A DNA stretch of 26,417 nucleotides. Source: a virus. Lineage: Duplodnaviria; Heunggongvirae; Uroviricota; Caudoviricetes. Location of the stretch: IMG/VR virus record IMGVR_UViG_2703718784_000007. One strand, 5' to 3'. A model generated the notes under the pieces. It was not told the DNA's origin, did no database searches, and saw nothing but the letters and a program-made list of their open reading frames with translations. The translations under genes and the position numbers were made by a program. This document shows, piece after piece, positions 1 to 23,138 of this stretch (its first letter is position 1; the number at the start of each line of letters is the position of its first letter).

Positions 1-300
1 TCGAGTCCTCGATGGCGGTCCATTATCTGCATCATGCGTTGTTAGCTCTGATGAGTGAATCATTGTCTTTTGAGCAACAGGCTATCATATAAGATAGTCT
101 CAGATTTCCTTGTTTATTCTCGCCGGATGCTTCGTAGATATTTGCAGGCATCTGTATGCAGGGGTATTATTGCGGCATATATCATCCGGAAAAATAAAAA
201 CTACATGCTGATCCGGAGATGATAGTTACAAGTCCTCCCGGATCCCGCATATTTACTATATTTTATAGATAATTGTTCTTGTTAATATGGAGATGGATAA

Positions 301-729
301 ATGTATTGCCGTGCTGTACCGGTTCTTGTTTTGATATTAGCCAGTCTGACAACTGGCTGCACAAAAGATGTATCGACAAATAATTATGATGCTTCGCTGC
401 ATCACTCAGATAAATTAATAAAGTCGCAAAATTTGAGCTTATCGGAACGTACCCCTGATGCCAGTGAAGAAATCCGGCAGTATGCCATTCAGGTCAGGGA
501 AGCCATAGAAGAACAGTTAAAGGATGCGGGTAAGTATTCAGGAAAAGAGTGTTCACTGAGAATGTATATGGCCCCGAATGGTCTTCTGCTACAGGTTAAA
601 AGAGAAAGCGGTGATCCCGATTTATGTCGTGAAGCGATGAATGCAGTAAAGAATGCTGATATACCATCACCACCGTCTTCAGGAGTATATAAAGCATTTA
701 GAAATGGCGTGCTGGATTTTAAACTCTGA
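301..729 (+). CDS. Lipoprotein with TolA C-terminal (domain III)-like domain; candidate moron
   Basis: ATG at 301 with GGAG upstream; N-terminal signal peptide ending in lipobox-like LTTGC; C-terminal ~90 aa closely resembles E. coli TolA domain III as recalled (GKxCxLR..APxGxLL..GDPxLC...IPxPPS...LDFK). Not verified by database search. Confidence 0.8.
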   Translation: MYCRAVPVLVLILASLTTGCTKDVSTNNYDASLHHSDKLIKSQNLSLSERTPDASEEIRQYAIQVREAIEEQLKDAGKYSGKECSLRMYMAPNGLLLQVKRESGDPDLCREAMNAVKNADIPSPPSSGVYKAFRNGVLDFKL

Positions 730-795
730 CTGGGGGAGAAGATTTTCTCCTGTCCAGATGATTTTGGGGTGCTGGAAAGATATTGTGCTGTGAAG

Positions 796-1042
796 TGTTA
801 AATTCCTCACAATTCAGTAAGTTGACAGTTGCCTGTCAGACTGGGCATTTGTTAAAAAAATTTCGCATGGTGAATCCCCCTGTGCGGAGGGGCGACTGGT
901 GAACGGTATGATCTCTTTGATGATCGTAAGCGAGAATACGCGGGTTTAGTGTCACCGGGCTGAACTCACCGGGAGGCACCCGGCACCATGCTCATGGTGA
1001 TACAGAAATGCGGCTTCAGCCCCTCTCTGGAGGGGCTTTCTT
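796..1042 (+). repeat. Copy A of triplicated structured non-coding module (conserved blocks tgttaaat..cctcacaattcag / gcatggtgaatccccctgtgcggaggggc / ctgaactcaccgggaggcacccggcaccatgc, ending in terminator)
   Basis: Direct comparison with copies B and C; long-range 8-bp helix 865-872/984-991 encloses hairpins 877-892 and 969-983. Confidence 0.6.
1018..1042 (+). terminator. Intrinsic terminator-like hairpin (agcccctc-tctg-gaggggct followed by ttctt)
   Basis: Perfect 8-bp GC-rich stem, 4-nt loop, T-rich tail. Confidence 0.65.
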
Positions 1043-1047
1043 ATGGA

Positions 1048-1115
1048 CAAAAAAGCCCGCGCTGGGAGACGCGGGCGGCAAGGAATAAACAATAAAACGT
1101 GAAGTAATATTTCAG
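1048..1115 (-). ncRNA. Candidate minus-strand small RNA, copy A (about 70 nt)
   Basis: Minus-strand sigma70-like promoter: -35 TTGCGC (plus 1147-1152), 18-bp spacer, -10 TATTAT (plus 1123-1128). Minus-strand intrinsic terminator (stem gcccgcg/cgcgggc at plus 1055-1076, followed by a T-run on the minus strand = plus A-run 1048-1054). Same architecture conserved in copy C. Confidence 0.3.
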
Positions 1116-1477
1116 CTGGCGAATAATACCCCATAGTAATCACTCTGCGCAACTGCGCGGCCTTTTTCGAATTGCGGGCTGTAGTCTCCCTTCTGCCGGG
1201 TGGCCTGGTTGCAGATTTCTTCATGGGGTAGGGTTCGGCAGTTAAAGCAGCGATGGCGCTGGGGCGTCGTGCTATAGGCGTTGAGCTGGATACCGGGCGT
1301 TTTGAACAGACTGCGCAGGCAATCAGGGATATATTTATCGGTAGCTGTTTGCAGAAGTAATCTCCCAAAATTCCATTTTTGGAATGCAGTGGTTGTTGCT
1401 GTAGTGTGGGCAAGTTCTGGAACTGGCTTCGTCCATTGCAGATGATTGTTAGCTGGATATCAGTTACCTCATGGAAA

Positions 1478-1711
1478 TGTTAAATGACTCACAATTCGGT
1501 TGATGGACTATTGTCTGATTGATGGAAGTCTTGTAAAAACGAGCCAGCATAGTGAATCCCCCTGTGCGGAGGGGCGTCTGACATGGTCTCCATAGCGATG
1601 GTCACAATACGCAGATTCAGTAGTCAGGCTGAATCTACCGGGAGGCACCCGGCACTATGCTGCTTATGGTGTATACACAGCGATCGGCCCCTCTCCTGAG
1701 GGGCTTTTTTT
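1478..1711 (+). repeat. Copy B of triplicated structured non-coding module
   Basis: Same conserved blocks as copy A; long-range helix 1547-1554/1653-1660 (gcatagtg/cactatgc) carries a compensatory change relative to A and C; hairpins 1559-1574 and 1638-1652. Confidence 0.6.
1687..1711 (+). terminator. Intrinsic terminator (gcccctc-tcct-gaggggc followed by ttttttt)
   Basis: 7-bp GC-rich stem, 4-nt loop, T7 run. Confidence 0.8.
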
Positions 1712-1730
1712 GTGCGGGAAAAGGCTGTGT

Positions 1731-1974
1731 TGTTAAATGTTAAATCCCTCACAGTTCAGATGGTTGATGCTTGCCTGTCTGACGGGGAGTTGTTAAAAAA
1801 GTTCTGCATGGTGAATCCCCCTGAGCGGAGGGGCATATCAGCGCAGGTGTTTCTACTCTATCCTTTCTGTGCGGGTTCAGGTGCTGATACTGAACTCACC
1901 GGGAGGCACCCGGCACCATGTAGTATACAGAGATTAGGCATACATCCAGGCTCCTCATTGCAGGAGCCTTTTTA
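1731..1974 (+). repeat. Copy C of triplicated structured non-coding module
   Basis: Same conserved blocks; helix 1806-1813/1914-1921 (one G-U wobble at its end). Confidence 0.6.
1948..1974 (+). terminator. Intrinsic terminator (aggctcct-cattgc-aggagcct followed by tttt)
   Basis: 8-bp stem, 6-nt loop, T-run. Confidence 0.7.
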
Positions 1975-1979
1975 CATGC

Positions 1980-2047
1980 AAAAAAACCGCTCCAGGGAAG
2001 AGCGGTTGGCAAGGAATAAATAACAAAACGTGAAGTAATTTATTCAG
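1980..2047 (-). ncRNA. Candidate minus-strand small RNA, copy C (about 70 nt)
   Basis: Minus-strand promoter -35 TTGCGC (plus 2079-2084), 18-bp spacer, -10 TATTAT (plus 2055-2060); minus-strand terminator stem aaccgctc/gagcggtt (plus 1985-2007) followed by T-run on the minus strand. Paralogous to the unit at 1048-1115. Confidence 0.3.
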
Positions 2048-2197
2048 CGCCCTAATAATACCTTACAGTAATCACATTGCGCAACTGTATGTAAGGGCGT
2101 ATTTCTTTTTTGCGGGCTGTTTTGTGTGACTTTTGTGTTTCCGGAGGTCAGCCCGAGCCTTCTCTGACTCAGAACATTATTCCGGCCGGGAGGATTC

Positions 2198-4186
2198 ATG
2201 GCATTTAAACACTACGATGTGGTCAGGGCGGCATCGCCGTCAGACCTTGCTGAACGACTGACACAAAAACTGAAGGAGGGGTGGCAGCCATTTGGCAGCC
2301 CTGTCGCCATCACGCCTTATACCCTGATGCAGGCTATTGCGGCGGAAGGTGATGTCACCACGCCGGTGCTGGTTAAACCATCGGGTGACGGGGAGACGGC
2401 TATCAGCAAGACCGGTGAGCCTGAATATTATTATGTTGTCGCGCTGGCGGGTCAGTCAAATGGTATGTCTTTTGGAGAGGGAGTACCGTTACCTGATTCT
2501 TATGATCGCCCTGATCCGAGAATTAAGCAGCTTGCCCGTCGACGTACCGTTACGCCGCGAGGCGTTCCCTGCACCTATAACGATGTTATTCCGGCAGATC
2601 ATTGTCTTCATGATGTGATGGATATGAGTGAAAAAAATCACCCCCGGGCAGACCTCAATAAAGGTCAGTATGGTTGTGTGGGTCAGGGACTGCATATTGC
2701 CAAAAAACTGTTACCGTTTATACCGGCGAATGCGGGCATTCTTCTGGTTCCATGCTGTCGTGGAGGCTCGGGAGTGACTACAGGTAATGAGGGAACATTT
2801 AACGCCTCTTCCGGGGCAAGCCCTGATTCTGCATTGTGGGGAGCTGATAAGCCGCTGTACCAGGATCTGTTAAGTCGCACGAAAGTCGCGCTGGCTAAAA
2901 ATCCCGGAAATATCCTGCTGGCGGTAATCTGGATGCAGGGGGAGAGTGATCTGGCTTCAGGAAGCCAGAGTCATAATGCTCTTTTTACTGGCATGGTACA
3001 GAAATTCCGTGCTGACATCGCTGATATGTCAGGGCAGTGCGTGGGGGGCTCGGCACTGAGCGTTCCGTGGGTTTGTGGCGATACGACGCATTACTGGAAA
3101 GAAAAATATGCTGCGTCTTATGAAACTGTATACGGTGGATATAAAAATAAGGCAGCGCAGAATATTCACTTTGTCCCTTTCATGGTTGATGGAAGCGGGG
3201 TAAATGTGCAGACCAATAATCCGGCAGAAGATCCTGATATTGAAGGTATTGGCTACTCCGGTTCGAAGTGGCGAGACAGTTCTGTCAGCTGGACGTCAGG
3301 TGACAGGGCAAGCCATTTCGGTTCATGGGCGCGGCGTGGAATTATTTCAGATCGTCTTGCAACCGCAATTCTGACCCACGCAGGCAAATACCCGGCGTTT
3401 ATCACCGGGCGGTCAGAAACGGTAGTTGCAGGAGATGAACGGGAAAACGTTACATCCGGAAATTTCCCGTCACCTGTGGAGGATGCTGCGTTATCACAGG
3501 ATGCACCTCAGAGAAGAACGGTTGTTGAGTATAATTCAGCTGTTGAGAAAGACAGCCTCGGTGGTAACTGGGCAGCCCAGCACTGGAATGCCCGGGACGG
3601 TGTCGCCGAGTTTGTTAATGATGAAAGCAGACAGGTGCTGAAGATTAAGCAGCATGAGGGCAAACAGGGACCGTGGATGCTGTCAGCAGGAGTATCAGCT
3701 GAAGATGCCCGTGCTCTGTATGAAAATGGCGGTGAAATAAAACTTGAATTCAGGTTGCCGGATGGTACCCAGGTTGCAGATGACAAATACCTCTTTGGTG
3801 TTTACCTGCCAGTTTCCGGGTGGACTCAGGAAGGCAACGGCAGCAATATGATGGCCTCCTTTTTCACTCAGACAAAAGCCAGTAACCTGGATGTCATGTA
3901 TCACGGTAAAACACAGCCTAATACAAAAATTGAGTCATTCGGTGCGGTTAATAACAACTGGCACACGCTTGTCTTTAAATATAAAGGAGGCGGCAATCAC
4001 CAGGTTATTCCGGTACTTGACGGAGAAGAGAAAACAGGTTTTGCACTGAAAGAAGGTCCGGTCACTTCTGCCTTTACGGTGGATAACATCACAGTGACAG
4101 GTATCAGCGCAAATCAGGGAAAATCTTATCCTGTCATGTTCCGCAGTATCATGGTAAGCATTAACCAGGCAACCTCTTCATCATAA
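2198..4186 (+). CDS. nanS: Prophage sialate O-acetylesterase (NanS-p family; SGNH/SASA esterase domain plus C-terminal domains)
   Basis: 662-aa ORF with GGGAGGA RBS; GQSNG-type catalytic serine motif (VALAGQSNGMSFGEG); size and position immediately upstream of the lysis genes as in Stx-type lambdoid prophages. Confidence 0.85.
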   Translation: MAFKHYDVVRAASPSDLAERLTQKLKEGWQPFGSPVAITPYTLMQAIAAEGDVTTPVLVKPSGDGETAISKTGEPEYYYVVALAGQSNGMSFGEGVPLPDSYDRPDPRIKQLARRRTVTPRGVPCTYNDVIPADHCLHDVMDMSEKNHPRADLNKGQYGCVGQGLHIAKKLLPFIPANAGILLVPCCRGGSGVTTGNEGTFNASSGASPDSALWGADKPLYQDLLSRTKVALAKNPGNILLAVIWMQGESDLASGSQSHNALFTGMVQKFRADIADMSGQCVGGSALSVPWVCGDTTHYWKEKYAASYETVYGGYKNKAAQNIHFVPFMVDGSGVNVQTNNPAEDPDIEGIGYSGSKWRDSSVSWTSGDRASHFGSWARRGIISDRLATAILTHAGKYPAFITGRSETVVAGDERENVTSGNFPSPVEDAALSQDAPQRRTVVEYNSAVEKDSLGGNWAAQHWNARDGVAEFVNDESRQVLKIKQHEGKQGPWMLSAGVSAEDARALYENGGEIKLEFRLPDGTQVADDKYLFGVYLPVSGWTQEGNGSNMMASFFTQTKASNLDVMYHGKTQPNTKIESFGAVNNNWHTLVFKYKGGGNHQVIPVLDGEEKTGFALKEGPVTSAFTVDNITVTGISANQGKSYPVMFRSIMVSINQATSSS

Positions 4187-4260
4187 AACAAAAAAACGCC
4201 AGCGCAGAGGAGAACGGGAGGATAAGTCTGACGCTGGCGGAGGAGTATCCTCATGGAGAA

Positions 4261-4292
4261 CGATATGTAACACATATCGCCTTTCTTTTATT
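4261..4292 (+). terminator. Terminator-like hairpin after nanS-p (cgatatgt-aac-acatatcg followed by cctttcttttatt)
   Basis: Perfect 8-bp stem, AT-rich, followed by a T-rich tract. Confidence 0.45.
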
Positions 4293-4332
4293 GAAAAGTC
4301 ATCGCCATTGTCAACCATAACGGTAAGAAACT

Positions 4333-4515
4333 ATGACATTTGTTCATCAACTGATGCTGTACTTCTGTACGGTGGTATGCGTGCTGTATCTTCTTTCGGG
4401 TGGGTACAGAGTCGTGCGCGATTTCTGGCGCAGGCAGATTGATAAAAGGGCCGCTGAGAAAATCAGCGCCAGTCAGTCAGCCGGAAGCAAACCCGAAGAT
4501 CCGCTCATTCCGTAG
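4333..4515 (+). CDS. Hypothetical small membrane protein (60 aa, one hydrophobic helix then a basic tail)
   Basis: ORF track only; weak RBS; overlaps the 5' part of ORF 4400-4822 in another frame. Confidence 0.3.
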   Translation: MTFVHQLMLYFCTVVCVLYLLSGGYRVVRDFWRRQIDKRAAEKISASQSAGSKPEDPLIP

Positions 4516-4552
4516 TCACTTTCTTGACAACACCTTTCAACGAGAAAATCCT

Positions 4553-4822
4553 ATGTCAGAAATAAAATCGCTGGTAACTGCTGAGGCAGTGAAGGAAGTC
4601 CTGCGCTCTGAAGAAGTCCTGAGCGCACTGAAACAAAAACTCCGCCAGAATCTTGAGGCGCGTCTTGATGCAGAAGTGGATGCCATTCTGGATGAACTGC
4701 TGGGCGCACCGACTGTTCCGGAGCCGGAAGGCATTGCGGATGACAGTGCTGTTTCAGATGGCGTCGGGTCTCAGCCTGACGGTAGTGAAGAGCCTCAGCC
4801 TGACGGCGAAATGATGATGTAA
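4553..4822 (+). CDS. Hypothetical acidic protein (89 aa)
   Basis: Internal ATG at 4553 (MSEIKSL...) of ORF 4400-4822, chosen because the upstream part overlaps 4333-4515; Asp/Glu-rich C-terminus. Confidence 0.45.
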   Translation: MSEIKSLVTAEAVKEVLRSEEVLSALKQKLRQNLEARLDAEVDAILDELLGAPTVPEPEGIADDSAVSDGVGSQPDGSEEPQPDGEMMM

Positions 4823-4896
4823 CCATGCGCAGGGGTGTCGGTGTGAGCTGATGCCCCACTTGTTGTTGTGAGCTTCCGGATTGCGGGAGACGGGGT

Positions 4897-5112
4897 ATGT
4901 ACCAGATGGAAAAAATCACAACAGGTTTGTCATACACCACGTCAGCGGTGGGAACGGGCTACTGGTTCCTGCAGTTGCTGGACAGGGTTTCCCCGTCTCA
5001 GTGGGCGGCAATAGGCGTGCTGGGGAGTCTGCTGTTTGGGCTGCTGACATATCTGACGAACCTGTATTTCAAAATTAAAGAAGACCGGCGTAAGGCGGCG
5101 CGGGGAGAGTAA
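4897..5112 (+). CDS. S: Class II holin, phage 21 S21-type pinholin with dual-start motif
   Basis: 71 aa; Met1 and Met4 starts (MYQMEK...); strong similarity to S21 as recalled ([14 protein letters not shown]...[20 protein letters not shown]). Confidence 0.85.
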
Positions 5113-5116
5113 GCTG

Positions 5117-5650
5117 ATGAGCAGGAAACTCCGCTATGGTTTATCGGCTGCCGTTCTGGCGCTGATTGGTGCAGGGGCGTCTGCGCCTGAAATCCTCGAC
5201 CAGTTTCTGGATGAAAAAGAAGGCAACCACACCACGGCATACCGTGATGGCGCGGGTATCTGGACCATCTGCCGTGGAGCCACCCGGGTGGATGGTAAGC
5301 CTGTTATTCCTGGCATGAAGTTGACGAAGGAAAAATGCGACCGGGTTAACGCCATTGAGCGTGATAAGGCGCTGGCATGGGTGGAGAAAAACATCAAAGT
5401 GCCACTGACTGAACCCCAGAAAGCGGGGATCGCGTCATTCTGCCCGTATAACATTGGCCCCGGTAAGTGTTTCCCGTCGACGTTTTATAAACGAATTAAT
5501 GCAGGCGATCGCAGGGGAGCGTGTGAGGCGATTCGCTGGTGGATTAAGGACGGTGGCAGAGACTGCCGTATTCGCTCAAATAATTGCTACGGTCAGATAT
5601 CCCGTCGTGACCAGGAGAGCGCGCTGGCGTGCTGGGGAATCGACAGATAA
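5117..5650 (+). CDS. R: SAR endolysin (signal-anchor-release lysozyme, R21-like)
   Basis: Starts 4 nt after holin stop; N-terminal Gly/Ala-rich weakly hydrophobic SAR segment (LSAAVLALIGAGASAP); EG...D...T catalytic region typical of T4-lysozyme-like SAR endolysins. Confidence 0.9.
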   Translation: MSRKLRYGLSAAVLALIGAGASAPEILDQFLDEKEGNHTTAYRDGAGIWTICRGATRVDGKPVIPGMKLTKEKCDRVNAIERDKALAWVEKNIKVPLTEPQKAGIASFCPYNIGPGKCFPSTFYKRINAGDRRGACEAIRWWIKDGGRDCRIRSNNCYGQISRRDQESALACWGIDR

Positions 5651-5740
5651 GCAGAATATTTTGCTGAAAAATGACGTTGACCAACGCGGACGGATAACAC
5701 GAAATCCTGCGAACTGGCAAAACCTAGTGAATAAAAGTAA

Positions 5741-5775
5741 AAACCCCGTTTGTTGGCAGCAAGCGGGGTTTTGTG
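5741..5775. terminator. Hairpin with A-tract before and T-tract after (aaaccccg...cggggtttt), possibly a bidirectional terminator, between R and Rz
   Basis: 8-bp stem with a 15-nt loop; weak as a canonical terminator. Confidence 0.3.
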
Positions 5776-5808
5776 TTTCCTGACTCCGGAAAAGTCAAAG
5801 GAGAAAGT

Positions 5809-5946
5809 GTGTTTAATTTTAGCAAACTGATTCGGGAGATTCGAGTGATGGCTGAAAAATTATCCACCTGGAAGTTCATCCTTATCTGGCTGGTGTTTGT
5901 GATTATGGCCTCCGGTTATTTCATCGGTCAGATACGCTGGTGGTGA
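5809..5946 (+). CDS. Hypothetical small hydrophobic peptide between endolysin and Rz (45 aa from GTG 5809, or 32 aa from ATG 5848)
   Basis: AGGAGA 4 nt upstream of GTG; hydrophobic core [18 protein letters not shown]; stop TGA 5944-5946 lies 1 nt before the Rz ATG. Below the ORF-track size cutoff. Confidence 0.3.
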
Positions 5947-5947
5947 A

Positions 5948-6442
5948 ATGAACCGCGTTCTGTGTGTGGTCATTATTGCCTTGCTGGTGGCCTGTGGTGC
6001 GCTTAGTCTGGGGCTGAATCATTACCGTGATAACGCCATCACCTACAAAGCGCAGCGCGATAAAAAAGCCAGAGAGCTGGAGCTGGCAAACGCAACCATT
6101 ACTGACATGCAGCAGCGCCAGCGTGATGTTGCTGCGCTTGATGCCAGATACTCAAGGGAATTAGCCGATGCGAGAGCTGAAAATGAAACTCTGCGTGCTG
6201 ATGTTGCCGCTGGTCGTAAGCGCCTGCGGCTCAACGCCACCGGCCCCGGTACCGTGCGTGAAGCCACCGGCACCTCCGGCGTGGATAATGCAACCGGCCC
6301 CCGACTGGCAGACACCGCTGAACGGGATTATTTCAACCTCAGAGAACGGTTGATGACAATGCAGAAGCAGCTGGAAGGGGCGCAGGAATATATACGCACT
6401 CAGTGCACTAAGCTGGCTTTTTATTATCCGGAGGATACATGA
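5948..6442 (+). CDS. Rz: Rz i-spanin
   Basis: Strong similarity to lambda Rz as recalled ([16 protein letters not shown]..., ...[23 protein letters not shown]); N-terminal TM helix. Confidence 0.9.
6168..6353 (+). CDS. Rz1: Rz1 o-spanin lipoprotein, embedded in the +1 frame of Rz
   Basis: Lipobox LVVSAC, proline-rich ([27 protein letters not shown]), matching lambda Rz1; fully nested within Rz. Confidence 0.8.
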
Positions 6443-6663
6443 AGAAATTACGGGTAACCGTAGAACCTTTTCAGGGAACAATTCCGTTCCGTATTTTGCA
6501 GCGTGGTCGTGTTCTTGTTGAAGGTTCGTTCAGTGGTAAATGTACGCAATTACACTCCCGGACCTTTCAGGTGAATGCCACGAATGAAGAGCTAACCGTT
6601 GAGTGTACGATGAATGCCGCTAAATGCCGCATGGTATCCGCTGCATTACAGCCAGTGTGTTGA
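6439..6663 (+). CDS. Hypothetical protein (74 aa), start overlaps the Rz stop
   Basis: ATGA overlap with Rz stop; GGAGGA RBS 5 nt upstream; no recognisable domain. Confidence 0.45.
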
Positions 6664-6971
6664 GCGACCTTATTATCCATGGCGCGGTATTGTCGCCGTA
6701 TTCCCGTATTAACAGAGACCGCAGCCCGACAGGGAGACTCCTCTGCGCGAGTGTGCGGGGATAATCAAAAACGATACACACCGGGGTTTACCGCGTTAAC
6801 GGAGCGCGGCGTTGTCCCCTCATGGTCGCTGGTCCGGTGCGATGGTGGAAGAAACCGGACGATGTGTTACCTCGCAAGCTCTGTTATGTCATGTGTCTGA
6901 TTTGTGATTTAAGTCGGATAATTGTCGTTGCCATTAAGCAGAGGATTGATGACCGACAGGGTGGCATTGTT

Positions 6972-6988
6972 AGAATAAGACTTATTCT
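6972..6988. promoter_or_regulatory. Perfect 17-bp palindrome AGAATAAG-A-CTTATTCT immediately upstream of the TonB-like gene (candidate operator or RBS-sequestering hairpin)
   Basis: 8-bp arms around one central base; AT-rich; ends 14 nt before the ATG at 7003. Confidence 0.3.
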
Positions 6989-7002
6989 TATCTGTGCCGG
7001 GA

Positions 7003-7335
7003 ATGAAAATGAAAAGAAATCTTCCGTTAATTATTTTGTTGTCTTCTCTGGTTATGGGCTGTACGCAACATAAAACAGATATGCCCCGACAGTTGGTTAA
7101 GGCATTACCACAATATCCGGCCTATGCAGCGGCAAATTATATAAAGGGACGGGTTGATGTGAAGTTTGATATTGGTGCTGATGGTACTGTCACCCGAATT
7201 GAGTTTATCCGTTCAGAGCCGCACCATCTGTTTGATGAGCAGGTTGTAAAAGCGATGGCAAAATGGCGATTTGAGAAGGACAGGCCGCGTAAAGGCGTGA
7301 AGAAAACGTTTATCTTTAGTCCTTCTGCACCCTGA
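7003..7335 (+). CDS. Lipoprotein with TonB C-terminal-domain-like fold; candidate moron
   Basis: Signal peptide with lipobox LVMGC (MKMKRNLPLIILLSSLVMGC); remainder resembles the TonB C-terminal domain as recalled (PQYPA.A......G.V.VKFD...DG.V.....I.S.P...F...V..AM..WR.E). Start chosen at ATG 7003; GTG 6994 or ATG 7009 also possible. Confidence 0.8.
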   Translation: MKMKRNLPLIILLSSLVMGCTQHKTDMPRQLVKALPQYPAYAAANYIKGRVDVKFDIGADGTVTRIEFIRSEPHHLFDEQVVKAMAKWRFEKDRPRKGVKKTFIFSPSAP

Positions 7336-7466
7336 TTATTTCATCAGAAATTAATTATCACTCTGTTGTTATTCTGTACATCCCGGCAGGGTAAGTCTTG
7401 TTCCGTCGGATATGAAGATGAAATATTGTTGGAGGACAGTGGGTACCTGCTCCTGTAACCGAACGT

Positions 7467-7667
7467 TCATTTCTCGTTATTTGTCATGCTGGCCGGGCGC
7501 AGATGCGTTGCATCTGTTGCCAGCCTTCTCCTGCAGGCTTCAATAACCCACGCTGAAAAGTTACCGGACCCTTTATGCTCAAGGGCGATGTTGATCTGTT
7601 CAATCATGTGATTGGGGAAACGGATATTGCGGGTTGTGGTTCTGCGGGTCCGGTTTTTCGATGACAT
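7467..7667 (-). CDS. Ribbon-helix-helix (Arc/MetJ/CopG-like) DNA-binding protein, orphan
   Basis: Internal ATG at 7667 of minus ORF 7467-7727, with AAGGAAA RBS; N-terminal beta-strand motif RNIRFPNHMIEQI followed by two helices; the ORF-track GTG start at 7727 would overlap the HNH gene. Confidence 0.55.
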   Translation of the reverse strand: MSSKNRTRRTTTRNIRFPNHMIEQINIALEHKGSGNFSAWVIEACRRRLATDATHLRPASMTNNEK

Positions 7668-7708
7668 ATTTATTTCCTTTACTGATTGCCATATGACGGG
7701 GATTTTAC

Positions 7709-8074
7709 ATGGCTCAGCTTCGTACACTCCAGAGCAGAATCAAAACACTGAATACCCGACGGGTGAATATTCTGAAGGGTGAACAGCGTCGTGTCAGTGG
7801 CAGTGCACGTGTTTCCCTCAAGCGTCATATCTGGCTCAGGGACGCCGGGCAGTGCTGTCTCTGTGGTCGTGTGGTTGACCTCTGTGACAGTGAACTCGAT
7901 CACCGAATTGCACTTCAGTTCGGTGGTGGTAATGAGGAGACGAATCTCTGGACGCTCTGTACCGAATGCCATCGACAAAAGTCTGTTCGTGAAGCGGCGA
8001 GTGGTATGCCGGACCCGACACTGCCGGAGGTGTCCGGAGGTAGTGGCAGAGCGGACGACATCATCGGACTGTAA
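7709..8074 (+). CDS. HNH endonuclease (terminase-associated, HK97 gp74-like)
   Basis: Cys-pair zinc finger and HNH motif (CCLCG...DHRIALQFGG.N...NLWTLCTECHRQK); located immediately upstream of the cos region and terminase genes. Confidence 0.85.
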   Translation: MAQLRTLQSRIKTLNTRRVNILKGEQRRVSGSARVSLKRHIWLRDAGQCCLCGRVVDLCDSELDHRIALQFGGGNEETNLWTLCTECHRQKSVREAASGMPDPTLPEVSGGSGRADDIIGL

Positions 8075-22043: not shown

Positions 22044-23138
22044 ATGAAAAAAATGACAGTGGCACTTTCTGCTGTAGCAGTTGCAGTGATGTTTGCTGCG
22101 GGGGCGCAGGCAGCAGAAGTTTATAATAAAGATGGTAATAAACTGGATCTTTACGGGCGTGCAACCGCTCTGCATTACTTCTCGGATGATAAAGGTAATG
22201 ACGGAGATCAGACTTACGCTCGTCTCGGCTTTAAAGGCGAAACGCAGATTAATGATCAACTGACCGGATTTGGTCAGTGGGAATACCAGTTCTCTGGTAA
22301 CAAAACGGAATCTGAAGGTTCCGCGGGAAATAAAACCCGTCTGGCATTTGCAGGTCTGAGATTTGCTGATGTTGGTAGCATTGATTACGGTCGTAACTAC
22401 GGTATTGCTTACGATGTCGGATCATATACTGACGTACTGCCAGAGTTTGGTGGTGATGGCTGGACTCAGACCGATAACTTTATGACTGCCCGAACTTCCG
22501 GAGTTCTGACCTACCGTAATACAGATTTCTTTGGGCTGGTTGATGGTCTGAATTTTGCGGCGCAGTATCAGGGCAAAAATGAGCGCGATGACCTCCAGAA
22601 GGCCAATGGTGATGGGTATGGTTTCTCAGCCAGCTATGAGTTTGATGGTTTTGGTCTCGTAGCGGCGTACACGAAATCTGACCGTACTGATAAGCAGGTT
22701 AATGGAGGAAGCTCTGTTGCCAGTGGTAAATATGCTGAAATGTGGGGGGCTGGTCTGAAATATGATGCCAATAATCTGTATATTGCGACAATATATTCAG
22801 AGACCCAAAATATGACGGCTTTTGGCGATAAGGTTAACGGCATTGCGGATAAGGCAGAAAACGTTGAAGCTGTAGCGCAATATCAGTTTGATTTTGGTTT
22901 ACGTCCATCACTGGCATTCCTGCAGTCTCGTGGGCAGGAGGTTATAGTTGGTGGGAAAAACTATGGGGATCAGGACCTGGTTAAATATATTGATGTTGGA
23001 GCAACATATTACTTCAACAAAAATATGTCTACCTATGTTGATTATAAAATTAACCTGATTGACGAAAACAAATTTACTCAGAAAGCCGGTATTACTACAG
23101 ATGATATTGTTGCTGTGGGTATGACTTATCAGTTCTGA
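22044..23138 (+). CDS. Outer membrane general porin (OmpC/OmpF/PhoE family); moron inside the tail module
   Basis: Signal peptide [38 protein letters not shown]; porin hallmarks (FGLRPS..., C-terminal ...YQF); located between tail genes M and L. Confidence 0.9.

Follow-up and report, generated by a model that had tools for sequence, protein, structure and literature searches.

Why should a prophage carry, within a single late region, the C-terminal domain of TolA in one gene and that of TonB in another, each placed behind a lipoprotein signal? This question is raised by the IMG/VR record IMGVR_UViG_2703718784_000007 (Caudoviricetes), a stretch of 26,417 nucleotides that we refer to as the window. 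The window is the late region of an Escherichia coli lambdoid, Stx (Shiga toxin)-phage-like prophage, and its positions 1-8000 share at least 99% identity with prophages of nine complete E. coli genomes. A preliminary description of this DNA had regarded the TolA-like and the TonB-like gene as a coordinated exclusion system covering both the Tol- and the Ton-dependent import route. We evaluated 238 gene copies from fetched loci (148 TolA-like and 90 TonB-like) and surveyed 5,426 complete E. coli genomes. Each protein is, as far as can be told from its sequence, an exported, probably lipidated, and anchor-less copy of the ligand-binding head of a transducer, kept by selection. We assign a probability of roughly 0.5 to these lipoproteins being natural dominant-negative decoys against Tol- and Ton-dependent colicins and phages. 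With regard to their pairing, the two are independent accessory genes of lambdoid prophages, and an obligate or coordinated system is not supported.

Transducer domains behind lipoprotein signals

The TolA-like protein, whose layout is given together with all feature coordinates in Table 1, matches the Pfam family of the TolA C-terminal domain (PF06519, E=3.4e-22, residues 53-140). Its residues 55-141 align without a gap to residues 334-420 of E. coli TolA at 51.8% identity, both disulfide cysteines of TolA are retained, and a phmmer comparison with the TolAIII sequences of the PDB gave E=7e-25. The AlphaFold2 model is confident for the domain (predicted local distance difference test, pLDDT, ~70-84) and of low confidence for residues 1-53. 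Submitted to Foldseek, it retrieved the TolAIII structures 3QDP, 3QDR, 2X9A, and 1TOL with template modeling (TM) scores up to 0.85 and root mean square deviations of 1.4-2.1 Å, the values for 3QDP being 0.85 and 1.8 Å. Domain III with the TolA fold is present at the C-terminus, and the inner-membrane anchor (domain I) as well as the long helical domain II are missing. Against NF007065, the protein scores 99.8 at a cut-off of 213, covering only positions 298-386 of the 387 in the profile. The Prokaryotic Genome Annotation Pipeline (PGAP) calls this protein of 142 amino acids “cell envelope integrity protein TolA” and the gene tolA, a misnomer which arises because the TIGR02794 cut-off is passed on the C-terminal domain alone.

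Translation of the TonB-like gene probably starts at the ATG at position 7009 and not at the GTG at 6994 opening the longest open reading frame (ORF), since RefSeq entry WP_000828070.1 uses the former and a 71%-identical variant conserves it. The product matches Pfam TonB_C (PF03544, E=5.8e-15) and reaches 56.4 in TIGR01352 against a cut-off of 27.1; its residues 26-104 align, again free of gaps, to residues 153-231 of E. coli TonB at 39.7% identity. The YP motif and the equivalents of F180, G186, F202, W213, and F230 are retained, Q160 is replaced by L, R166 by Y, and Y215 by F, and TonB residues 232-239 are absent. The AlphaFold2 model is of moderate quality (pLDDT 60) and was taken as a confirmation of the fold only; its best matches are 2GSK_B and 2GRX_C, which are C-terminal domains of TonB in complexes with BtuB and FhuA. 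The TonB_C domain is thus found at the C-terminus, the transmembrane anchor and the proline-rich spacer coupling to ExbBD are missing, and the full-length equivalog models (PRK10819) give scores of 49-73 at cut-offs of 265-448.

The preliminary description was accurate in this anatomy: two plus-strand ORFs, each consisting of a C-terminal interaction domain (TolA or TonB) behind a lipoprotein signal, are borne out by Pfam, alignments, and models, and the native inner-membrane anchor and linker are missing from both, with equivalog scores far below the cut-offs. Its wording of the two genes as unrelated needs to be qualified. Direct comparison of the two proteins detected no sequence similarity; the TolA-like protein, however, also matches TonB_2 (3e-05) and each model weakly matches structures of the other family, so that the domains themselves are not unrelated.

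Both N-termini are lipoprotein signal peptides, MYCRAVPVLVLILASLTTG-C in the TolA-like and MKRNLPLIILLSSLVMG-C in the TonB-like protein. By a rule-based call of the PROSITE PS51257 type (lipobox ending in Cys, positive N-region), all 148 TolA-like and all 90 TonB-like copies pass, although the N-termini vary between variants. The residue at +2 is T or S in these copies and never Asp. Under the established +2 rule, a lipoprotein without Asp at this position is sorted to the outer membrane. With the lipobox present and Asp missing from this position, both proteins are predicted to be outer-membrane lipoproteins. Since neither has an inner-membrane anchor, they cannot be energized by TolQR or ExbBD.

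Both genes might also be nonfunctional debris, fragments of tolA and tonB that entered by illegitimate recombination and have been passengers since. Older annotations as “partial tonB-like membrane protein” and a PGAP flag of one copy as a truncated-tolA pseudogene would fit this view. The conservation data, however, speak against it. The ORF is full-length in all 238 copies, and between variants differing at 20-27% of their nucleotides the ratio of nonsynonymous to synonymous substitution rates (dN/dS) amounts to 0.23-0.31 for the TolA-like domain and 0.10 for the TonB-like gene; both genes are under purifying selection. No variant has lost the acquired lipoprotein signal peptide, not even a Klebsiella homolog of 40% identity, and short TolA-domain lipoproteins form dozens of clusters across Enterobacterales. 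The debris reading is excluded by these data and effectively refuted.

Cargo slots and joint occurrence of the two genes

The two genes are spaced 6.3 kb apart in two different cargo slots. The slot of the TolA-like gene is that of stxAB: homology to Stx1a phages sets in again at window position 793, 40 bp past the end of stx1B, and the Stx1a-converting phage Stx1a_1602 shows the order NinG, Q, stx1A, and stx1B (Pfam RIP 6e-38, SLT_beta 4.5e-48). In O157:H7 ATCC 35150, a TerB-family gene stands in this slot, and the TonB-like protein is identical to the one of the window (WP_000828070.1). As the TolA-like gene sits exactly at the position of the Shiga toxin genes, the finding shows the stx slot to be a general cargo site. 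The TonB-like gene fills the gap between Rz/Rz1 and the ylcI-HNH-terminase segment, a gap that is ~0.6 kb shorter in prophages without the gene. Nissle 1917 carries iss, a serum-resistance lipoprotein gene, in the same post-Rz region, and in lambda this slot holds bor. Local guanine-cytosine (GC) content is 43-47% at the two genes compared with 50-60% over most of the phage, and both are polymorphically present or absent in otherwise collinear prophages. Optional insertion between conserved modules, atypical composition, and putative expression signals are found for both, and their earlier designation as morons holds in this respect.

The putative expression signals comprise one promoter-like site ahead of each gene (Table 1). 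In the TolA-like region, the count of sigma-70 promoter-like sites is no higher than in shuffled sequence. The core of the site preceding the TonB-like gene, ATTGT[T/C]AGAATAAGAC, is found also upstream of the 73%-identical variant in Nissle 1917. Both genes point in the same direction as the Q-dependent late transcript, to which the TolA-like gene would belong judging from gene order. A Fur-box-like sequence overlaps the -10 element of the TonB-like promoter-like site; a scan of both window strands for GATAATGATAATCATTATC gave only 11 sites with at least 13 matches. The sequence is not kept upstream of the 73%-identical variant or of the Klebsiella homolog, and regulation of the TonB-like gene by Fur is a weak lead at most.

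Position and orientation also bring up a role as late-cycle accessories of lysis or release, expressed from the Q-dependent transcript. The TolA-like protein would then destabilize the outer membrane as a TolAIII decoy, and the TonB-like lipoprotein would either aid outer-membrane disruption or block receptors on debris and spare the progeny, as Llp of T5. Co-orientation with the late genes, the stx position of the TolA-like gene, and the location of the TonB-like gene directly after the spanins, in E. coli as well as in a Klebsiella phage encoding a 40%-identical protein, are in favor of such a role, and leakage caused by periplasmic TolAIII is on record (PMC6195910). On the other hand, the canonical holin, endolysin, and Rz/Rz1 are all intact, and with Rz/Rz1 present upstream of the TonB-like gene the spanin function is already supplied. 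The TonB-like gene is absent from 40 of 72 prophages with the same packaging module and the TolA-like gene from most lambdoid phages; consequently, neither is required for lysis. The post-Rz slot is moreover a known cargo site, as iss in Nissle 1917 illustrates, and the promoter-like elements of the two genes suggest expression outside the late transcript.

PHROGs adds a further argument for lysis by filing the TonB-like family (phrog_1267) in this category as “Rz-like spanin”. An i-spanin consists of an N-terminal transmembrane segment and a coiled coil, o-spanins are small lipoproteins rich in proline that are paired with Rz or embedded in it, and a u-spanin combines a lipobox with a C-terminal transmembrane segment. 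The TonB-like protein was rejected as a spanin, its TonB_C domain being globular, with neither a C-terminal transmembrane or hydrophobic segment nor a coiled coil; the label of phrog_1267 is probably positional. Misleading names of this kind, tolA for the TolA-like protein and “Rz-like spanin” for the TonB-like one, can corrupt automated analyses. Overall, we consider a function in lysis or release unlikely.

Within the survey, the TolA-like gene was found in 897 genomes (~17%), 123 of them at ≥90% identity to the window gene and 761 at ~79%, and the TonB-like gene in 1,616 (~30%), with 414 at ≥95% and 1,201 at ~73% identity. The 79% class of the TolA-like gene, flanked by Q and the lysis genes in Qin/mEp460-type prophages, represents ~85% of the TolA-like carriers.

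Do the two genes form a pair, in the sense that both mimics were co-selected to shut both import routes of colicins and phages? The gene order of the window and of strain S19-651 confirms that both lie in the late region of one prophage, and co-occurrence does hold in the lineage of the window. Pairs in the same prophage were counted with the BLAST query 301-7335 by means of the query start and end columns, supplemented by sampled genomes and IMG/VR loci. Both genes lie together at one place in at least 39 complete E. coli genomes, compared with ~9 expected if the near-identical classes (123 and 414 of 5,426) were independent. The window-type TolA-like class also bears the TonB-like gene in 4 of 5 sampled genomes and in 6 of 10 IMG/VR loci, and the pair persists though the intervening genes diverge (protein identity 53-100% for the NanS-like esterase and 52-99% for Rz). 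This enrichment is limited to one prophage lineage, however, and many of the genomes are near-clonal.

Elsewhere, each gene is mostly alone. Among Qin/mEp460-type TolA-like loci from IMG/VR with at least 8 kb downstream, a nearby TonB-like gene was found in 0 of 34, and it is likewise not nearby in the Qin-type locus L005 and in phage mEp460_ev081. Conversely, the 73% class of the TonB-like gene (phage 21, ev017, Perceval, Nissle 1917) has no TolA-like gene nearby, none of the 15 genomes bearing the TonB-like gene in the phage collection has one, and only 6 of 23 TonB-seeded loci do, leaving ~74% without it, including O157:H7, Stx1a phages, phage 21, and Nissle 1917. The Klebsiella homolog is alone in its locus, too. 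For a comparison on a matched backbone, loci were seeded with the neighboring HNH gene, so that the packaging backbone was common to all. Of these 72 loci, 32 have the TonB-like gene, by which the notion that it always travels with the HNH-terminase packaging module was discarded. Where at least 9.5 kb upstream were available, both genes were present in 4 loci, the TonB-like gene only in 8, the TolA-like gene only in 1, and neither in 13. This corresponds to an odds ratio of 6.5 with a one-sided hypergeometric p of ~0.12 for loci that are not phylogenetically independent.

Considering the different slots, with a promoter-like site for each gene, the far more frequent occurrence of each gene alone, and the weak and nonsignificant association on the matched backbone, the coordinated Tol-plus-Ton pair of the preliminary description is not upheld, and we regard it as improbable. 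Joint presence is best explained by linkage and mosaic assembly within one prophage lineage, to which a modest co-selection may contribute.

Proposed periplasmic decoys and competing readings

What remains to be explained is the function of each gene by itself. The only folded part of either protein is a host-derived partner-binding domain, which would compete in the periplasm for the ligands of the genuine transducer. The TolA-like protein has a disordered tether of ~34 residues, by which it would reach TolB or the domains of an incoming colicin or g3p. It would bind the N-terminus of TolB, the g3p protein of filamentous phages, and TolA-dependent colicins at their translocation domains. With a tether of ~8 residues, the TonB-like protein would stay close to the outer membrane on its periplasmic side, at the point where TonB boxes emerge, and would occupy those of TonB-dependent receptors or of group B colicins. 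Either decoy would uncouple import from the proton-motive force. The outcome would be a lysogen tolerant of Tol- and Ton-dependent colicins and phages, or progeny shielded from the debris of the induced cell, at the price of some loss of envelope integrity or nutrient uptake.

TolAIII binds the TolB N-terminus, g3p-N1 of Ff phages, and colicin A by β-strand augmentation, and its complex with TolB is similar to TonB bound to a TonB box (PMC7391070). An overexpressed periplasmic TonB domain inhibits iron import via FhuA and FecA (Howard 2001, as cited in PMC9841981), and periplasmic TolAIII results in a leaky outer membrane and the release of periplasmic proteins (Levengood-Freyermuth 1993 and Wan & Baneyx 1998, as cited in PMC6195910). 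With such laboratory fragments as precedent, interference with Tol- or Ton-dependent import, as suggested earlier, is plausible for each protein; it is the coordination of the two that falls away.

The closest natural analogs are the FhuA-blocking lipoproteins Cor (phi80, N15, HK022) and Llp (T5), and the closest mechanistic analogs are laboratory constructs. Cor and Llp are likewise small phage lipoproteins encoded by optional accessory genes of siphophages, and they shut an import route at the outer membrane from its periplasmic side, Llp by binding FhuA (bioRxiv 10.64898/2026.03.26.714494); for the proteins described here, exclusion is predicted. A sequence relationship to Cor or Llp was not detected with Pfam, PHROGs, and PADLOC. 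Moreover, Cor and Llp block one receptor each, whereas the TolA-like and TonB-like proteins copy the partner-binding domains of the host transducers and would therefore act on a whole class of receptors or ligands. The dominant-negative TonB and TolAIII fragments of the laboratory comprise the same domains exported without the energy-coupling anchor, but are soluble, overexpressed, and artificial and have the host's own sequence. The proteins of the window are natural, 40-52% identical to the host domains, lipid-anchored by prediction, phage-borne, and under purifying selection. With genuine TolA and TonB, they share homologous C-terminal domains, a gap-free alignment, and the same fold, and they differ in the lack of a transmembrane anchor and of the TolA helical domain II or the TonB proline-rich spacer.

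Bor and Iss are outer-membrane lipoproteins as well. These and stx use the same lambdoid slots (iss post-Rz in Nissle 1917, stx1AB after Q and the tRNAs), with unrelated sequences and functions, namely serum resistance for Bor/Iss and a toxin for stx. FimU-like pilins of Pseudomonas phages provide a more distant parallel, being prophage copies of a host envelope component which interfere with a structure that other phages need, as described in PMC12952977; there, the type IV pilus of another organism is concerned and the function was shown by experiment, whereas here it is the Tol and Ton systems and the function is inferred.

Several points weigh against the decoys. No paper on either protein was found in the open-access literature, RefSeq accessions included in the search, and neither protein matches the PADLOC defense models. 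As both genes are co-oriented with the late operon, their expression may be mainly lytic and not take place in the lysogen. The cost that a strong decoy of either kind would impose (tol phenotype, iron starvation) speaks for expression that is low or conditional. The occurrence of TolA-domain lipoproteins in Serratia and Kosakonia chromosomes next to icd suggests that the function may not be phage-specific. Residues Q160 and R166 of TonB are partner contacts, and their replacement in the TonB-like protein could alter receptor binding. In Pfam and PHROGs, the proteins match only families of the TolA/TonB type and no exclusion family, and membership in known defense or exclusion families (PADLOC; Cor/Llp) was not found by sequence. 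The preliminary description knew of no described system of this kind, in agreement with our open-access search, in which no account of these proteins was found.

An effect on the host itself, without exclusion, is a further reading to be weighed: the proteins could modulate vesicle output via Tol-Pal or iron and B12 uptake via TonB, or provide a benefit under serum or envelope stress. Other envelope and virulence cargo is present in the prophage (an OmpC-type porin, and in the matching genome Lom, a YadA-like adhesin, and an S6 autotransporter protease), iss stands at the neighboring position in Nissle 1917, related TolA-domain lipoproteins occur in chromosomal, non-phage settings, and a review of Tol-Pal suggests that vesicle production could be regulated via TolB interactions (PMC7391070). 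These points are circumstantial, and the Fur-box-like sequence (13/19) is absent from the other variant. The molecular binding would be the same as that of an excluding decoy, and nothing separates the two readings; we judge a purely host-directed role to be unlikely.

Both genes are widespread and conserved, with O157:H7, Stx1a phages, and Nissle 1917 among the carriers, and a decoy function is plausible. If it is true, such decoys would explain part of the strain-to-strain differences in colicin and phage sensitivity within E. coli. This variation would be relevant to three applications that rely on Ton or Tol import, namely phage therapy, antimicrobials based on colicins, and siderophore-antibiotic conjugates. 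The decoys would also constitute a natural case of a virus turning the binding domain of a host protein against the host machinery. More tentatively, enterobacterial prophages and some chromosomes may have repeatedly captured both transducer heads as outer-membrane-tethered decoys disabling whole energized import routes, and such decoys would form a class of exclusion or immunity factors not confined to one receptor. As part of this wider and still doubtful scenario, a TolA decoy, a TonB decoy, and a replacement porin stacked in the lineage of the window would remodel most entry routes of colicins and phages.

Relatives, neighboring genes, and minor observations

The phmmer search over 1.84 billion representatives returned 292 TolA-like relatives. 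Many of them are stand-alone proteins of 110-160 amino acids with 30-47% identity, falling into dozens of clusters across Enterobacterales; named members of the family stem from Serratia entomophila, Kosakonia, and Scandinavium. A lipoprotein signal stands at the start of nearly all of the 35 relatives inspected. A homolog look-up preceding this search had yielded relatives nearly all from E. coli and Shigella. For the TonB-like protein, the 40%-identical homolog of Klebsiella phage ST13-OXA48phi12.4 carries the lipobox LLG-C-S and passes the lipobox rule. Its gene is placed after holin, lysozyme, and two small ORFs, is followed by HNH and terminase, and has no TolA-like partner in the locus. 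A profile scan of genome contigs with the TonB-like alignment gave one 418-bp contig, which is uninformative.

In Qin/mEp460-type prophages, a tandem pair of TolA-domain lipoprotein genes stands between Q and the holin gene; the product of the second is only 25% identical to the window protein. This tandem arrangement is the commonest form and corresponds to the ~79%-identity class (761 of 5,426 genomes). The divergent paralogs fit a diversification of decoys against different ligands. The first copy of the Qin-type tandem is flagged by PGAP as an N-terminally truncated tolA pseudogene, its ORF being intact. Frameshifted C-termini were seen in the cluster representatives P0021, P0022, and P0028 of the TolA-like and P0050, P0055, P0056, and P0058 of the TonB-like family; the Qin-type TolA-like frameshifts diverge at a run of seven C (L005:11290-11310), which could reflect sequencing error or slippage-prone variation.

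Near icd, stand-alone TolA-domain proteins of 140-150 amino acids are encoded in Serratia entomophila and Kosakonia, in a neighborhood of mnmA, a NUDIX gene, a rluE-like gene, and icd. The Kosakonia protein has a clear lipobox (LLLGC), and the Serratia representative has no cysteine at that place. The Serratia locus shows no obvious surrounding prophage; a DinI gene and a restriction-enzyme fragment adjoin the Kosakonia locus. In E. coli, icd is the integration site of phage 21 and e14.

Table 1. Coordinates of the features discussed, in the window and in related loci
Feature	Sequence	Position	Strand	Length	Identifier	Details
TolA-like gene	window	301-729	+	142 aa	WP_032330558.1	signal peptide; lipobox LTTG-C20; linker ~34 residues (low-confidence); TolAIII domain 55-141
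TonB-like gene	window	7009-7335	+	108 aa	WP_000828070.1, “TonB family protein”	lipobox VMG-C18; linker ~8 residues; TonB_C domain 26-104
Sigma-70 promoter-like site	window	141-170	+			TTTGCA-18-TATTAT; ~130 nt upstream of TolA-like gene; consensus match only
Promoter-like site, extended -10	window	6949-6976	+			ATGACC-16-TG-TAGAAT; ~33 nt upstream of TonB-like start
Fur-box-like sequence	window	6974-6992				13/19 matches to GATAATGATAATCATTATC
Rz i-spanin	window	5948-6442	+			Phage_lysis 2.6e-48
Rz1 o-spanin	window	6168-6353				embedded in Rz; Rz1 2.5e-21
74-aa ORF	window	6439-6663	+	74 aa	WP_000736383.1	phrog_2571, 2.7e-28
STnc100 small RNA (sRNA), copy 1	window	836-1048	+		RF02076	three copies with 121-172 bits vs gathering score 47
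STnc100 sRNA, copy 2	window	1518-1713	+		RF02076	
STnc100 sRNA, copy 3	window	1778-1979	+		RF02076	
OmpC/OmpF-type porin, full-length	window	22044-23138	+	364 aa		Pfam Porin_1 4e-143
Tandem TolA-domain lipoprotein genes	L005	10947-11375 and 11547-11921				
Tandem TolA-domain lipoprotein genes	L002	10534-10962 and 11113-11508				
TolA-domain gene near icd	L174 (Serratia entomophila)	7001-7453				
TolA-domain gene near icd	L176 (Kosakonia)	7001-7423				

The gene order around the pair can be followed in strain S19-651. Q is succeeded by a DNA methyltransferase, tRNA-Ile, tRNA-Arg, the TolA-like gene, a methyltransferase remnant, and a NanS-p-like SASA esterase; DUF1378, DUF826, a class II holin, lysozyme, Rz/Rz1, the 74-aa ORF, and the TonB-like gene come next, followed by ylcI (minus strand), HNH, terminase, HK97-type head genes, and lambda-type tail genes. 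In the window, the lysis cassette and the neighboring genes are supported by Pfam. The 74-aa ORF between Rz and the TonB-like gene is conserved; it matches only positions 100-172 of the 291 in phrog_2571, a family whose function is not known, and resembles a remnant or a domain of a larger protein.

The porin gene is inserted between the tail genes M and L in an island of 44-45% GC and is named ompC by RefSeq where the matching genome carries it. Lc and NmpC are examples of phage-borne porins that can replace host porins serving as phage receptors and colicin translocators. The prophage arm of S19-651 (NZ_CP075852.1, 386000-406000) continues with J, Lom, a tail fiber, a YadA-like adhesin, and an S6-family autotransporter protease, and no Cor-like gene is annotated in it. 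As its portal gene is interrupted by IS600 and its tape-measure gene is frameshifted, this copy of the prophage is probably defective.

Between the TolA-like gene and the esterase gene of the window lie the three copies of the STnc100 sRNA family, each with a terminator-like hairpin at its end. The excess of terminator-like sites in this region (12 found compared with 2 expected) arises because the three copies end in these hairpins.

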